The translations under genes were made by a program, and so were the position numbers. The notes beneath the pieces were generated by a model. It did no database searches and was not told where the DNA came from. It worked only from the letters and a program-made list of their open reading frames with translations. This document shows, one piece after another, positions 28,226 through 34,269 of a stretch of DNA of 64,000 bases (within the stretch, counting starts at the first letter, position 1; the number at the start of each line of letters is the position of its first letter). Location: sequence record SRR2962707_3586; one strand, given 5' to 3'.

Positions 28226-28248
28226 AAGTACTTTTAATTACTAAGTTG

Positions 28249-28276
28249 AAGCCATCGGTTGATGGCTTTTCTTTTT
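28249..28276 (+). terminator. Rho-independent terminator of can
   Basis: aagccatc-ggtt-gatggctt followed by T-rich tract. Confidence 0.85.
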
Positions 28277-28335
28277 AAAATCATCCTTAAATTGAATCAG
28301 GTCGTCTATTCCTTTTATCGTTTTTTCTGATGTCT

Positions 28336-28452
28336 TATCTTTGCGTCGAACTTTAAAACAAGCCTTCAAGAAGTTATCTTCTTTTCCAAAAACCAAATCA
28401 CATCCCAATATATTGAATTCACGTCCCTGGTAAGCGAAAGGAGGGACTTGTG
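28336..28452 (+). promoter_or_regulatory. -7 element and structured leader of the racemase operon
   Basis: TATCTTTG at 28336-28343; hairpin cac-gtccct...agggac-tt-gtg (28420-28452) pairs with the GTG start. Confidence 0.55.
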
Positions 28453-29889
28453 ATTTTAGACATAGCAATTTTTGCTATCTATGTTCTTCTGGTTTTTCTT
28501 GTTGGTCTCTATTTCTACCGAAAAAACAAAACAAGTGATGACTATTATGTAGCCGGAAGAAATGTGTCCAGTTGGCATATTGGTCTTTCTGTGGTTGCCA
28601 CCGACGTTGGTGGTGGGTTTTCGATTGGTCTTGGGGGACTCGGATTTGTCATGGGATTGTCTGGTTCCTGGCTTTTATTCACTGGTTTGATTGGCGCATG
28701 GATTGCTGCAGTATTACTTATCCCCAAGGTCTATCAGCTTCCGGGAATCCAAAAACTCAGCACATTGCCTCAAATATTCGAGCATTTTTATGGTAAGCAG
28801 GTGGCCATACTTGCAGGCTTGATTACCACTATTGGATACCTGGGATTTACCAGTTCACAAATAATTGCCGGAGCAAAATTGGCTTCAGGCACCTTTGTGG
28901 ATCTTTCGTTTACTCATGCCGTTCTGATCATGGGTTTCGTCGCGGTTGGATACACCATTTTGGGCGGATTGAAGGCTGTTATCTACACGGATACCATCCA
29001 ATGGATCATCTTGATGGCCGGATTGTTATTTGCCGGAATCCCTTTTGCATACCATGCAATTGGAGGATGGGAGTCCATTCATGCTGTTTTGGAGAATGAC
29101 TTTCTAAGGTTGGATAATGTTGGTTGGAAACAATTAGTCAATTGGGCTATAACCATCATTCCCATCTGGTTTGTAGGTATGACGCTGTATCAACGAATAT
29201 TTGCAAGTCGAGGTGAAAAGCATGCTCAAAAGGCCTGGTTTATTGCCGGTTTGTTTGAATGGCCAATGATGGCTTTTCTGGGGGTTATTCTGGGCATGTT
29301 TGGTCGGGTTGCTTTCGATCAGGGAATGTTTGAAGCGGTAGGATTTGCAGGCGGAAGCAGTATGGATCCGGAATTGGGTCTTCCTGTGCTCCTCCGAACT
29401 GTGTTGCCGCATGGGTTGATGGGCTTGGTTCTGGCCGCCTATTTTTCTGCAGTCATGTCAACCGCCGATAGTTGTCTTATGGCATGTTCAGGATCTTTTC
29501 TCACTGATATATTACGAATTCAACCGAAAGAAGGCGATTTGGATAAGAAATCACTCCGAGCTTCACAATTAGCCACTTTACTATTAGGGGCAGTTTCACT
29601 AGTGATTGCATTATCCCTGGAAAATGTGCTTGAAGCCATGCTGTTTTCCTATGCTTTTATGGTTTCAGGGCTATTTGTTCCTATCGTTGGAGCTTTTTAC
29701 TGGAAGCGATCTACCGCAATTGGTGCATTTCTGTCGATGGTTTCAGGTGGTACAGTGACGACTGTACTTACGCTATTAAAAATTGAATGGTATGGTCTGG
29801 ATCCCAACTTATATGGAATTGCGACCGCCCTTATCATGTTTATTGTTTCAGGATTCAAATCAAAATCTCAAAATGGATATCACATTTAA
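28450..29889 (+). CDS. Sodium:solute symporter (SSS/PutP-like)
   Basis: DYYVAGR, YTILGGLKAVIYTD.IQ, YQRIFAS, AVMSTADS; about 13 TM segments. Confidence 0.92.
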   Translation: MILDIAIFAIYVLLVFLVGLYFYRKNKTSDDYYVAGRNVSSWHIGLSVVATDVGGGFSIGLGGLGFVMGLSGSWLLFTGLIGAWIAAVLLIPKVYQLPGIQKLSTLPQIFEHFYGKQVAILAGLITTIGYLGFTSSQIIAGAKLASGTFVDLSFTHAVLIMGFVAVGYTILGGLKAVIYTDTIQWIILMAGLLFAGIPFAYHAIGGWESIHAVLENDFLRLDNVGWKQLVNWAITIIPIWFVGMTLYQRIFASRGEKHAQKAWFIAGLFEWPMMAFLGVILGMFGRVAFDQGMFEAVGFAGGSSMDPELGLPVLLRTVLPHGLMGLVLAAYFSAVMSTADSCLMACSGSFLTDILRIQPKEGDLDKKSLRASQLATLLLGAVSLVIALSLENVLEAMLFSYAFMVSGLFVPIVGAFYWKRSTAIGAFLSMVSGGTVTTVLTLLKIEWYGLDPNLYGIATALIMFIVSGFKSKSQNGYHI

Positions 29890-30322
29890 GAAATATTTCC
29901 CTGCCCAAACGGTTGGGCTTTACGAAAAAGAGGAAGTGGTTAGCTTCCTTTATGAGCACCTCGATGAGTTCGGTGACTCAAAGGAAGACATTAGAAAGTG
30001 TATTGAATATGCCCTAAATGCAGGCAAACATCCTGGTGGACTTATCCTAACTGCATGGGATAAGGATAAAATCATTGGAGCGACAATCATCAATAAAACT
30101 GGAATGGAAGGGTATATTCCTGAAAACATACTTGTATATATTGCGACGCATGGTGATTACAGAGGTCAGGGTGTTGGCAAGCAGCTGATGGAGCGTGCAT
30201 TCAAAGAAACCGAAGGAGACATTGCGCTACATGTTGAGCCGAATAATCCAGCCAAGTTTCTTTATGAGAAATTGGGATTCACTAACAAATACCTTGAAAT
30301 GCGATGGAAGAGACCTTCTTGA
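29873..30322 (+). CDS. GNAT N-acetyltransferase
   Basis: YIAT...YRGQGVGKQLM acetyl-CoA motif A, NPA..LYEKLGF; ATG 29873. Confidence 0.92.
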   Translation: MDITFKKYFPAQTVGLYEKEEVVSFLYEHLDEFGDSKEDIRKCIEYALNAGKHPGGLILTAWDKDKIIGATIINKTGMEGYIPENILVYIATHGDYRGQGVGKQLMERAFKETEGDIALHVEPNNPAKFLYEKLGFTNKYLEMRWKRPS

Positions 30323-31440
30323 ATGAACTAATAGCTTTCAGGAGGACACTACATCAACATCCTGAAGTTTCGCAAAAGGAATATCAGACCCAGAAACGGA
30401 TTATTCAGTTTTTGGAAGGTATTGGTATTGAAGGAATGCCCGTCGGGGGTACAGGTGTCTTAGTAGTGTTCGATTCGGGCAAGCCAGGAAAGACACTCTT
30501 GCTTCGTTCCGATCATGATGCCTTGCCGATACAGGAGATCAATGAATTTGAACATAAATCCTCTGTGCCAGGAGTCTCGCACAAGTGTGGTCATGATGGC
30601 CATACAACGATTATGTGTGGGGTAGCCAACCATCTTAAGGAGAATCCACCACCAAGTGGAAAGGTGCATTTGATTTTCCAGCCGGCGGAAGAAAATGGAG
30701 AAGGGGCCAAAGCAGTGTTGGCCGATAAAGGATTTGATGTTAAACCAGATTTGGTTTTTGCCCTTCATAACCTTCCGGGATATGCCTTGCATCAAATAGT
30801 TTACAGAGAAGGATCTTTTACTGCTGCGGCAAAGAGCATCATCATCAAACTTGATGGTAAAACATCCCATGCTGCAGAGCCTGAATTAGGTAAAAATCCG
30901 GCTACAGCTATTTCGGAGCTCATTTCTATGTTCGAAAGGGTGAGTCAGCCCGATCTGAAAAGAGACGATTTCGCGTTAACGACACCTATTTACCTTCATA
31001 TGGGGGAATTATCCTACGGAGTATCTGCAGGTCATGGCGAAGTGCACTATACACTCCGAACCTGGAACAACGAAACTATGGAGCAACTAACCAATCGAAT
31101 TCTGAAAGAGATTGAAGAAATAGCGGTGAAGCATCAACTCAAGACAACCATTAGTTGGACAGAGGAATTTGATGCAAATCAGAACGATCCTAAAGCTATT
31201 GAATTGGTGAAGTCTGCCATTGAAGTGAATGGATATCTTCATGAAGAACGAAAAACCCCATTCAAATGGGGAGAAGATTTTGGATTATTCACAAAGGAGT
31301 ATCCCGGTGCTATGTTCGGAATTGGATCTGGTCTGGATTGTCCGGCACTTCACAATCCCGAATATGATTTCCCCGATGAACTCATTGAAACTGGGATAAA
31401 CATGTTTACCAACATCATCAACAAGGCCCTCGATGAGTAG
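30304..31440 (+). CDS. M20D family amidohydrolase
   Basis: RR.LHQHPE, RSDHDALPI, HKCGHDGH, FQPAEE, EDF, LHNPEYDF. Confidence 0.92.
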   Translation: MEETFLNELIAFRRTLHQHPEVSQKEYQTQKRIIQFLEGIGIEGMPVGGTGVLVVFDSGKPGKTLLLRSDHDALPIQEINEFEHKSSVPGVSHKCGHDGHTTIMCGVANHLKENPPPSGKVHLIFQPAEENGEGAKAVLADKGFDVKPDLVFALHNLPGYALHQIVYREGSFTAAAKSIIIKLDGKTSHAAEPELGKNPATAISELISMFERVSQPDLKRDDFALTTPIYLHMGELSYGVSAGHGEVHYTLRTWNNETMEQLTNRILKEIEEIAVKHQLKTTISWTEEFDANQNDPKAIELVKSAIEVNGYLHEERKTPFKWGEDFGLFTKEYPGAMFGIGSGLDCPALHNPEYDFPDELIETGINMFTNIINKALDE

Positions 31441-32584
31441 CACCTCATACATCGAACTAAAGCGTGAAGCTTATGCAAAAAACCTCGCTTTTTTAAGGGG
31501 TTTGGTAGGAGAGCGTGTCCGAATCTCTTCTGTAGTGAAAGGGAATGCTTATGGACATGGAGTAAAGGATTTTGTCCCTATGGCAGAAGAAGAGGGAATA
31601 GATCATTTTTCTGTGCACAGTGCAGATGAGGCCAGGGAAGTATTGGATGCCTGCAGGAATTCGAATACAGAGATCATGATCATGGGGTTCATTGGCAATG
31701 AAGATATACCATGGGCCATTGAACATGGCATTTCATATTTTGTCTTTGAATTTGATAGGGTAATGGCTTCCATTGAAGCTTCTAAACATTCAAAAAAGAA
31801 CCCCAAGGTTCATATTGAGCTTGAAACAGGTATGAATCGTACCGGTTTCGATCGAGCGGAGATCGAGCGACTTATTCCTATCCTTCAGGAACATAAGGAT
31901 TTGCTGGATATAGAGGGCTTTTGCACACACTATGCTGGTGCTGAGAGCATTGCCAATCATTACCGAGTGCAGGAACAGAAGGAGCGCTTCAAATCACTGA
32001 GTAATCTTCTTCGTGAAAATGGGATTGTGCCTAAGATGGAGCATTCGTGTTGTTCTGCGGCAACTATTCGGGTTCCGGATATGCATGGCGACATGGTTCG
32101 GATAGGGATATTGCAATACGGCTTCTGGCCTAGTAGGGAGATATTCATTGAGTACTTGAAAGGAAAGAAGAGCAAGGAGGAGCCTTTATACCGTCTGATT
32201 TCCTGGAAAAGCTCTGTCATGAGTGTAAAGCATGTCGAGATGGGAGAGTTCATTGGATATGGGACAACCTACCTGGCACAGCGTGATATGAAAATAGCTA
32301 TTATTCCTATTGGCTACTCGCATGGTTTCAGCAGGTCGCTAAGCAATACCGGTAGAGTTTTAGTGAATGGCTATCGTGTCCCGGTCATCGGCATGGTCAA
32401 TATGAACAATATGGCCATCGATGTTTCAGAAATTGAGAACATTCAGAAGGGGGACGAAGTTACACTCATCGGCAGGAGCGGTGAGGTCGAGATCAGCGTT
32501 GCTTCCTTCAGCGAATTGAGTGATCAGCTCAACTATGAATTATTGACAAGATTACCTTCCAGAATACCCAGAATCATTATTTAG
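31433..32584 (+). CDS. alr: Alanine racemase family protein (stand-alone)
   Basis: VVKGNAYGHG PLP Lys, ETGMNRTG, catalytic-Tyr region IGYGTTY, YELLTRLPSRIPR. Confidence 0.9.
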   Translation: MSSTSYIELKREAYAKNLAFLRGLVGERVRISSVVKGNAYGHGVKDFVPMAEEEGIDHFSVHSADEAREVLDACRNSNTEIMIMGFIGNEDIPWAIEHGISYFVFEFDRVMASIEASKHSKKNPKVHIELETGMNRTGFDRAEIERLIPILQEHKDLLDIEGFCTHYAGAESIANHYRVQEQKERFKSLSNLLRENGIVPKMEHSCCSAATIRVPDMHGDMVRIGILQYGFWPSREIFIEYLKGKKSKEEPLYRLISWKSSVMSVKHVEMGEFIGYGTTYLAQRDMKIAIIPIGYSHGFSRSLSNTGRVLVNGYRVPVIGMVNMNNMAIDVSEIENIQKGDEVTLIGRSGEVEISVASFSELSDQLNYELLTRLPSRIPRIII

Positions 32585-33655
32585 ATGGCATTTATAGAAT
32601 TATACAAGGATAAGCTTAAGAAGAATTATACGTTTCTGGACGAGTTGTTCAAAGAGAATGATATCGAGTGGGCGGTGGTTTCCAAGCTACTGTGCGGCAA
32701 TGAAAAGTACCTGAAAGAGGTGATAGATCTCGGTACTATGGAAATCTGTGATTCACGGATCAGTAACCTGGAGACAATTAAAAAGCTCAAGCCCGAGGTG
32801 CAGACTGTTTACATCAAACCTCCAGCCAAGAGGAGTATCGAGCGGTTGGTGAAGTATGCTGATGCCAGTTTCAATACGGAGTATGAAACCATCAAATGGA
32901 TTTCTGATGAGGCTGTGAGGCAGAACAAGAAACATAAGATCATCATAATGATCGAGTTGGGTGATCTCAGGGAAGGGGTAATGGGGGATCAGTTGATGGA
33001 GTTTTACGAATCTGTTTTTAACCTACCAAATATTCAGGTGACAGGAATTGGCGCCAATCTCAACTGCCTTTATGGGGTTATGCCTTCTGAAGATAAGCTC
33101 ATACAACTATCACTATATGAGCAACTTATAGAAGCTAAGTTCAATCAAAAAATACCCTGGGTTACCGGAGGTACTTCTGTAGTGGTTCCATTGATCTTTC
33201 GGAAGCAGATTCCCGAAGGGATCAATCATTTTCGAATTGGTGAGATGCTCTTTTTCGGTCTTGATTTGTTTACTCAGGAGACTGTTCCGGGTATGGAAGC
33301 AGATGTGTTCAAACTATTTGCTGAAATCATCGAGATTACTGAAAAACCGAAGGTACCTTCAGGCTATCTCGACACGAACCCTTCCGGAGATACCTTTGAA
33401 ATTAATGAAGAAGATTACGGAAAGACAAGCTATCGGGCCATCTTGGATGTAGGGTTATTAGAAGTCTCCGAGGATTTTCTTATTCCTGAAGATGAAAATA
33501 TTGAGATTACGGGAGCCAGTTCTGACATGCTCATTGTGGACCTTGGTGAACACAGCGACAACTATAGGGTAGGAGAATTGGTAAGTTTCAAATTGAAGTA
33601 TATGGGTGCCTTAGGACTGTTCAACTCTGATTACATAGAGAAAAGGGTGGTATAA
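32585..33655 (+). CDS. Alanine/ornithine racemase family PLP-dependent enzyme
   Basis: VVSKLLCG, DSRISNL, MIELGDLREG, GANLNC, GGTS, NHFRIGE, GASSDML. Confidence 0.88.
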   Translation: MAFIELYKDKLKKNYTFLDELFKENDIEWAVVSKLLCGNEKYLKEVIDLGTMEICDSRISNLETIKKLKPEVQTVYIKPPAKRSIERLVKYADASFNTEYETIKWISDEAVRQNKKHKIIIMIELGDLREGVMGDQLMEFYESVFNLPNIQVTGIGANLNCLYGVMPSEDKLIQLSLYEQLIEAKFNQKIPWVTGGTSVVVPLIFRKQIPEGINHFRIGEMLFFGLDLFTQETVPGMEADVFKLFAEIIEITEKPKVPSGYLDTNPSGDTFEINEEDYGKTSYRAILDVGLLEVSEDFLIPEDENIEITGASSDMLIVDLGEHSDNYRVGELVSFKLKYMGALGLFNSDYIEKRVV

Positions 33656-33696
33656 TTCAGCTTTTTATACATTTGCGGAGAATCCCCTAACCGCTT

Positions 33697-34269
33697 ATGT
33701 CTACCGAATTTCAAAGTAAGAAACTCGCCTATTTCTTCCATATCCTTGATTTAAACCGAAATGGCTTCATTCAGCTGGAGGATTTTTCTGAGATGGCAGA
33801 GAAGGTCCGAATGATCATGCAGTATGAAGAAGGAAGTAATGAGCATCAACGCATAACCGAAAAGGCTACTAAATTCTTTCACACACTCGTAAAAGACATA
33901 AAGCCGCAGGATAAGCAGCAGATTTCTGAAGGTGAGTGGGTACGTTTTTTTGAAACAGAGATCATCACCGATGAAGATGAGTTGGATATCTACAAAGAGA
34001 TGGTCTTTAATTTCATGTTTGATTTCTTTGATCAAAACCGTGACGGCTTTATCTCAAGAAAGGAATACGAGGATTTTTATGCCATATTCGGAATAGATGA
34101 CCAATACCTGGATAAAGCCTTCCAAAAGCTAGATAACTCCAATGCCTACAAACTAAGCCGATACGATCTCTTATCTGCTGTAGAGGACTTCTTTTCGTCT
34201 ACTGATGAAGCACTGGCCGGGAACTGGGTCTTTGGCCATTGGGAATCTAGTCCACATAAACCGGATTAG
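33697..34269 (+). CDS. EF-hand calcium-binding protein (calerythrin/SCP-like)
   Basis: DLNRNGFIQLED and DQNRDGFISRKE loops, C-terminal GNWVFG; TACATTTG at 33668-33675. Confidence 0.85.
   Translation: MSTEFQSKKLAYFFHILDLNRNGFIQLEDFSEMAEKVRMIMQYEEGSNEHQRITEKATKFFHTLVKDIKPQDKQQISEGEWVRFFETEIITDEDELDIYKEMVFNFMFDFFDQNRDGFISRKEYEDFYAIFGIDDQYLDKAFQKLDNSNAYKLSRYDLLSAVEDFFSSTDEALAGNWVFGHWESSPHKPD

Follow-up and report, generated by a model that had tools for sequence, protein, structure and literature searches.

A 64,000-nucleotide (nt) stretch of sequence record SRR2962707_3586, referred to here in its entirety as the window, carries a putative five-gene operon encoding an SSS-family sodium:solute symporter (SSS), a small GNAT N-acetyltransferase (GNAT), an M20D amidohydrolase (M20D, or M20 in gene orders), an Alr-family racemase paralogue (ALR), and an ornithine-racemase-family, fold-III pyridoxal 5′-phosphate (PLP) enzyme (ORR). 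It appears to encode a pathway of marine Bacteroidota, not described before, that acts on a D- or N-acetyl amino acid. In the reading that we favor, to which we assign a probability of roughly 0.45, GNAT and ORR form a core that interconverts an ornithine-like amino acid and its N-acetylated D-form, in either direction, while SSS feeds this core and M20D and ALR extend or reverse the route.

GNAT and ORR as the core of the cluster

The gene families were assigned by Pfam and NCBIfam profile scans of the window proteins, and their conservation was examined in two scans of other genomes. The first scan, with ORR as query and one genome per species, gave 36 loci that were skewed to close relatives and spanned Cytophagales, Flavobacteriales, Chitinophagales, Sphingobacteriales, and Phaeodactylibacter, with the closest (88% identity) in Ekhidna. 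Cultured carriers include Algoriphagus sediminis (L006), Marinoscillum pacificum (L023), and Phaeodactylibacter luteus (L020). The five-gene order of the window was kept in 27 of these loci and all five genes were found in 28, one of which had GNAT first; the other eight loci comprised SSS-GNAT-ORR (L012), GNAT-ORR (L034 and L035), a cluster without SSS (L016), a contig start (L002), and ORR alone (L010, L027, and L033). The second scan covered an even sample of 401 Bacteroidota genomes at cut-offs of E ≤ 1e-20 for ORR, E ≤ 1e-15 for GNAT, and E ≤ 1e-70 for ALR. ORR was detected in 52 of these genomes, GNAT in 50, and both in 49, and GNAT adjoined ORR in 47 of the 52 fetched ORR loci. The five loci without an adjoining GNAT were (i) two contig ends; and (ii) the three most divergent ORR homologues (36-40% identity), two of which adjoin a MutL-type gene (PF13941), presumably a feature of ornithine-fermentation clusters. 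The sole sampled genome with GNAT and without ORR (G180) has a lone GNAT gene (L109, 7032-7472, + strand) after sdhA-sdhB, and this gene looks like a cluster remnant in light of the same neighbors in L012.

Ten arrangements were found among the 52 ORR loci, including four orders of all five genes, with GNAT-ORR and M20-ALR kept as units. The most frequent counts were 11 each for GNAT-ORR and SSS-GNAT-ORR-M20-ALR, 8 for SSS-GNAT-ORR, 7 for the window order, and 3 for GNAT-ORR-SSS-M20-ALR. SSS adjoined the cluster in 34 of the loci. When the flanking open reading frames of 87 loci were clustered, the sole recurrent families were ORR (86), GNAT (78), SSS (62), M20 (54), ALR (53), and an M23-like gene (15), counts that are not fully independent, as the two locus sets may share genomes. 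The obligate core of the cluster is GNAT and ORR, to which SSS, and M20D with ALR, are add-ons. An earlier reading of the window made from sequence only had called for a check of neighborhood conservation, and by both scans the cluster is strongly kept across Bacteroidota orders. Its view of the five genes as one unit held for the near-constant GNAT-ORR pair and did not hold as an indivisible set, with M20-ALR beside ORR in only 24 to 26 of the 52 ORR-positive genomes. The pair of racemases may, as that reading proposed, reflect two substrates or two stereocentres.

This conservation bears on the simplest explanation of all, that an ordinary alanine racemase and unrelated neighbors were packed together by chance. 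ALR does score above the TIGR00492 cut-off and every one of the families is common in bacteria; however, the order kept in 27 of 36 close loci (all five genes in 28), the near-perfect co-occurrence in 401 genomes, the survival of the association through four gene orders, and the separate MurF-Alr of related genomes (see below) leave this explanation with hardly any likelihood.

Predicted chemistry of the core

The sequence of ORR is that of a putative racemase. Residues K34, R129, N158, C161, and R217 were found to be invariant in 37 sequences and common to 124 other family representatives, with the position of the PLP lysine (K34) occupied by K in 123 of these 124. The retention of this lysine in both racemases, claimed previously, was borne out (in ALR it lies within VVKGNAYGHG). 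The available text on Salmonella OrnR (2025; PMC13397332) describes an enzyme that (i) is without the Alr catalytic Tyr and uses Lys36 and Cys164 in catalysis, with C164A inactive; and (ii) has Asn161 in place of the stacking His and binds PLP by Arg129 and Arg220. The five ORR residues correspond in order to OrnR Lys36, Arg129, Asn161, Cys164, and Arg220 of that text, and the catalytic Cys of ORR is placed three residues after the Asn that replaces the stacking His, as is typical of the family. By these correspondences, ORR has the full catalytic set of a racemase of the Lys/Cys ornithine-racemase type. An AlphaFold2 model of ORR had the Alr fold at a predicted local distance difference test (pLDDT) value of 93.5. 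No solved relative of ORR was detected by single-sequence search, a profile search gave a marginal match to lysine racemase (E 0.0033), and Foldseek with the ORR model returned generic Alr-fold matches only, at 10-16% identity.

The wider family, whose other members share 32-44% identity with ORR, is tied to ornithine by gene fusions. When 23 long family members were scanned, 17 were fused to arginase, one to a 2,4-diaminopentanoate dehydrogenase domain, and one to a VanX-like M15 domain. The arginase fusions, which fall among proteins P0173-P0261, would imply a direct route in their carriers from arginine through L-ornithine to D-ornithine.

GNAT was matched by PF13508 (53.9 bits) and PF00583 (47.8 bits), and a closer placement was sought with only generic RimI/NAT-like relatives found. 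An alignment of 32 GNAT sequences had 33 invariant columns and a loop of R97-G98-x-G100-x-G102, in which R97, G100, and G102 do not vary and G98 hardly does; this loop fits R/Q-x-x-G-x-G/A, which we take to be the acetyl-CoA loop motif. SSS was placed in the general SSS family (PF00474, 172.8 bits), and its substrate was left unassigned since it scored 159 bits against the PutP equivalog, for which the cut-off is 515.5. In-frame fusions of SSS and GNAT were found in seven of nine long GNAT relatives and in locus L011, which suggests that GNAT may act also on what SSS imports.

In the scheme that we propose for the core, ORR would convert X, an ornithine-like amino acid with a free alpha-amine, between its L- and D-enantiomers, and GNAT would acetylate one enantiomer irreversibly, pulling the racemase equilibrium to the N-acetylated product. 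Given how strictly GNAT and ORR depend on each other, GNAT would appear to take the enantiomer made by ORR. With an endogenous L-substrate, an N-acetyl-D-amino acid would be the one sensible net product, and the simplest product would be N-acetyl-D-X from L-X. The Na+ symporter would bring X or a close precursor to GNAT, to which it is fused in some relatives. M20D and the atypical ALR would constitute a second, optional unit that either liberates an amino acid from a peptide or an N-acyl derivative and racemizes it, or dismantles the acetylated product.

A physical association of the two core enzymes is weakly supported by modeling. Two ORR chains with one GNAT scored 0.44 (runs of 0.44, 0.56, and 0.00) compared with 0.20 for the best control, with a partner pLDDT of at least 83 and at least 94% of contacts shared between runs. 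Among the calibration cases, 51 of 78 solved complexes attained the mark, as did 2 of 108 mismatches; at values ≤ 0.60, just 5 of the 78 solved complexes attained it, along with all 4 passing mismatches.

The order of steps was also considered. The sequence-only reading had suggested acetylation, racemization, and deacetylation by chemistry analogous to the D-glutamate route of marine bacteria. PLP racemases form an aldimine with their substrate and require a free alpha-amine. Both racemases of the operon are PLP enzymes, and by this established chemistry such a chain cannot be literal.

ALR, M20D and the alternatives to the core reading

ALR passed TIGR00492 (287.4 bits, cut-off 168) and has kept the catalytic Lys (in VVKGNAYGHG) and Tyr (in GYGTTY) of Alr. 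The 31 cluster ALRs have the motifs NMN, GYSHG, and CSAA compared with CMD (or TMD), GYADG, and N(S/T/A)AA in five MurF-Alr domains and four solved Alrs. This subfamily was detected in 40 of the 401 genomes, all of them ORR-positive (40/40) and none among the 349 that are ORR-negative, and the restriction held also where ALR lies far from ORR. Twelve such unlinked ALR loci had an M20 neighbor in four cases, an M23-type gene in one, and neither in seven (one a short contig). The dependence of ALR on the core and its altered motifs argue that ALR may serve the ORR pathway rather than general alanine metabolism.

A separate housekeeping enzyme was found in relatives of the window genome. The closest complete genome (G001) has a full MurF-Alr (L037, NF008897 990 bits, cut-off 804), together with a YggS-size protein and an aldolase-like protein, and ALR is therefore judged to be an extra paralogue. 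Further PF01168 genes were present in each of five related genomes, among them the full MurF-Alr of L037, three genomes with open frames of 806-831 amino acids (aa) assigned by Pfam only, and a 456-aa piece in G003 that matches the Alr half only. The possibility raised earlier that this Alr is the sole one was thus not borne out in five of five related genomes, and the separate MurF-Alr that was to be looked for is seen among these relatives. A third Alr paralogue was also observed, in ORR-positive genomes only (L123:3788-8178, + strand; also L124, L125, L126, and L044), 3′ of a weak ATP-grasp gene and an approximately 660-aa protein without a Pfam match; it has Asn in place of Alr Tyr354, which we take to be a trait of the VanT serine racemase.

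M20D passed TIGR01891 (235.7 bits, cut-off 153.75) and fell below the specific equivalogs DoeB2 (205 bits, cut-off 550) and CpsA (181 bits, cut-off 500). Its best solved relatives were YxeP, 4ewt, an ILR1-like protein, and N-acyl-glutamine aminoacylase, and its gene lies directly 5′ of ALR wherever both occur. All 15 of the closest long M20D relatives (33-40% identity) have a Mur-ligase middle domain, and the three that were scanned were MurD above cut-off. These MurD-M20D fusions (proteins P0280-P0294, 791-897 aa, 15 clusters) suggest, by analogy with MurF-Alr, that the fused M20D might supply MurD with D-glutamate from an N-acyl or peptide form. An M23-type peptidase gene of about 200 aa, without a signal peptide, was found 3′ of ORR in 14 of the 52 sampled loci; its best NCBIfam match was to the middle of the 1015-aa PRK06148 model (120 bits), which is not a peptidoglycan hydrolase model. 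The gene follows ORR in one lineage (L083:7379-7975, - strand; L079, L084, L085, L087, L088, L091, L092, L094, L096, L097, L099, L103, and L108), and in L029 it is near ORR on the opposite strand. In one unlinked locus (L121) it adjoins ALR.

These fusions and neighbors are grounds for reading the operon as a peptidoglycan salvage system, in which M20D, with the M23-like protein in some lineages, would cleave small peptides that contain D-Ala or N-acyl amino acids, ALR would convert D-Ala to L-Ala, ORR would racemize a second residue, and GNAT would acetylate unusable products. The Mur-ligase domains of the M20D relatives, the cytoplasmic M23-type gene after ORR and beside ALR, the one ORR-family member fused to a VanX-like D-Ala-D-Ala dipeptidase domain, and the catalytic Lys and Tyr of ALR all fit this scheme. 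However, it does not explain why GNAT is obligately paired with ORR (49/50) or why ALR is restricted to ORR genomes (40/40), as a plain D-Ala racemase would be of use alone. Furthermore, the M23-like gene is not in the window, and SSS transporters are not known to carry peptides. We consider salvage, taken as this joint scheme, to be unlikely.

Several points weigh against the reading of GNAT and ORR as an ornithine-like racemase-acetyltransferase core. First, ORR was matched end to end by NF040742 (Orr) at 311.6 bits, under the cut-off of 480 (the Ekhidna orthologue scored 321.3 bits), and the GNAT-linked ORR clade differs from the 124 other members at otherwise conserved positions (R78K, H315M, Q292L, L76Y, and D288). 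Given the R78K, H315M, Q292L, and L76Y changes, ornithine may not be what ORR acts on. Second, the genomes counted are related to one another, so that the co-occurrences do not amount to independent events and their Fisher support is overstated. Third, a deacetylase and an acetyltransferase that are co-expressed would run a futile cycle unless their stereo- or regiospecificity is opposite, which the core reading assumes. Last, the core model leaves the role of ALR unexplained, and ALR, with the usual catalytic residues kept, may be no more than an alanine racemase.

The altered positions of ORR can also be read in favor of a Dgc-like inversion of a dibasic D-amino acid, in which GNAT would acetylate the side-chain amine of the imported compound, ORR or ALR would racemize it at C-alpha, and M20D would deacetylate to the L-form. 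H315M, Q292L, and R78K are less polar and would accommodate an acetamido side chain, should these residues line the pocket, and the SSS-GNAT fusions would put acetylation straight after uptake. The content of acetyltransferase, deacetylase, and racemase resembles the DgcN-DgcA route, whose existence, as asserted before, is attested by a mention in the available text of PMC10845958. However, the known ornithine racemases, as far as the available text of PMC13397332 goes, use the free amino acid, which would make acetylation superfluous. Moreover, an adjacent M20 is lacking in 24 of the 52 ORR loci (with two contig ends uninformative), and the requirement for two racemases is not explained by such an inversion, which we regard as quite improbable.

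An M20D of opposite specificity to GNAT is the basis of another scheme, in which the operon would deacylate, racemize, and re-acetylate to make a solute of the N-acetyl-D-ornithine type. An L-specific M20D would free L-ornithine from the N-acyl-L-ornithine of the arginine pathway, ORR would racemize it, and a D-specific GNAT would re-acetylate it, fixing D-ornithine as an inert acetylated compatible solute or store; SSS would scavenge this solute or its precursor. To our knowledge, carbamoylation in the arginine pathway of Bacteroidota acts on acylated ornithine, and ornithine does not occur there in free form. If true, this scheme, which we find highly doubtful, would amount to a racemase-based parallel of AblAB, the pathway to acetyl-beta-lysine.

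Operon layout and relationship to known systems

The five genes lie on the + strand (Table 1), with junction overlaps of 17, 19, and 8 nt followed by a 0-nt gap, as determined from the open reading frames and the junction sequences. This packing behind one -7 element agrees with what had been described for the window. The open frame of GNAT covers 29783-30322, and its ATG gives the 149-aa protein and the 17-nt overlap with SSS.

Table 1. Features of the operon and its immediate surroundings in the window
Feature	Position	Strand	Remarks
-7 promoter element TATCTTTG (TAnnTTTG)	28336..28343	+	sole intergenic match before operon; Bacteroidota type
Perfect palindrome AAGAAGTTATCTTCTT	28368..28383	+	between -7 element and start codon; candidate operator or hairpin of the 5′ untranslated region
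SSS, sodium:solute symporter	28450..29889	+	479 aa, GTG start; PF00474
GNAT, small N-acetyltransferase	29873..30322	+	149 aa, ATG start; PF13508, PF00583
M20D, amidohydrolase	30304..31440	+	378 aa; TIGR01891
ALR, Alr-family racemase paralogue	31433..32584	+	383 aa; TIGR00492
ORR, ornithine-racemase-family fold-III PLP enzyme	32585..33655	+	356 aa; NF040742
EF-hand protein	33697-34269	+	190 aa; downstream of operon; own -7 element TACATTTG at 33668-33675

TAnnTTTG, which we take to be the Bacteroidota -7 consensus, is underrepresented in the window (27 occurrences compared with 52.9 expected). On the + strand of 28226-33655 it occurs at the tabulated promoter site and otherwise once, inside ORR at 33391. 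An upstream alignment revealed that the element is kept as TAyCTTTG/TACTTTTG in six Ekhidna loci. About 25 nt 3′ of the element lies the palindrome AAGAAGTTATCTTCTT, present as a single copy in the window compared with 0.01 expected, and forming an invariant block with variable flanks in the alignment. It was found exactly in 5 of 126 loci, all Ekhidna relatives, and the sixth Ekhidna locus has one base changed just 5′ of the palindrome. By its sequence and position, it could serve as an operator or leader hairpin. No riboswitch was detected in the leader by Rfam (best E-values 1.8 and 2.4).

Upstream, a terminator-like hairpin (28248-28269) ends a carbonic anhydrase gene. Downstream, the separate TACATTTG before the EF-hand gene suggests that the operon most likely ends after ORR. 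The EF-hand gene, on which hutU and hutH converge, was present only in Ekhidna and one Roseivirgaceae locus. As parts of the module, hutU/hutH and the EF-hand gene were rejected, being found in 6 and 7 of the 36 loci, respectively, all close relatives. A biofloc metatranscriptome run contained 17% of sampled words, with contigs over parts of SSS, M20, and ALR, one of which (31344-31578) spans the M20/ALR junction; these were not used as evidence, as carry-over of DNA is possible and contigs do not equal a single transcript.

No account of the SSS/GNAT/M20D/ALR/ORR gene set was found in the literature searched, in keeping with the earlier remark that no characterized pathway with it was known, and the source annotations are generic ("alanine racemase", "alanine/ornithine racemase family", and "GNAT family"). 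The nearest systems each share part of its logic. AblA-AblB makes N-epsilon-acetyl-beta-lysine; that system also joins a dibasic amino acid isomerase to a small GNAT to give a neutral acetylated product. A GNAT that produces a compatible solute is likewise described, in the available text, for the lysine N-alpha-acetyltransferase of Salinicoccus halodurans. Unlike in these two, the isomerase here is a racemase rather than an aminomutase, and the operon has an extra hydrolase and a second racemase. The DgcN-DgcA(-DgcH) D-glutamate route of marine bacteria, on the available text and with its deacetylation step taken from the sequence-only reading, is alike in placing N-acetylation around a stereo-inversion; it uses other enzyme families, and with PLP racemases here the order of steps must differ. 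ORR itself resembles OrnR/Orr (Salmonella STM2358 and Clostridium sticklandii Orr, as far as the available text describes them) as a fold-III PLP enzyme with the Lys, the Asn-x-x-Cys, and two Arg, and differs in falling below the Orr cut-off and in a context of GNAT instead of D-ornithine decarboxylase, aminomutase, or arginase. ALR is similar in fold and catalytic residues to the Alr part of Bacteroidota MurF-Alr and differs in being free-standing, in its NMN/GYSHG/CSAA motifs, and in its presence in only a subset of genomes. RacX, which we take to be a PLP-independent Asp/Glu-type racemase, was set aside as a parallel. The mechanism of RacX rests on Cys193 and Ala79 according to the available text of PMC12838360.

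By these comparisons, the enzyme families are known, while the combination of racemase and acetyltransferase appears to be new, with a logic like that of Dgc or AblAB and a chemistry and step order that would be different. The module is carried by about one eighth of the sampled Bacteroidota genomes. D-amino acids and N-acetyl amino acids make up a large, poorly understood share of marine organic nitrogen, of which Bacteroidota are major consumers. The strict pairing of GNAT and ORR offers a clean two-enzyme system for in vitro work, and the identity of its substrate would (i) tell what an entire clade of the ornithine-racemase family does; (ii) explain the atypical Alr subfamily; and (iii) reveal a mode of combining PLP racemases with acetylation that is unlike the Dgc route.

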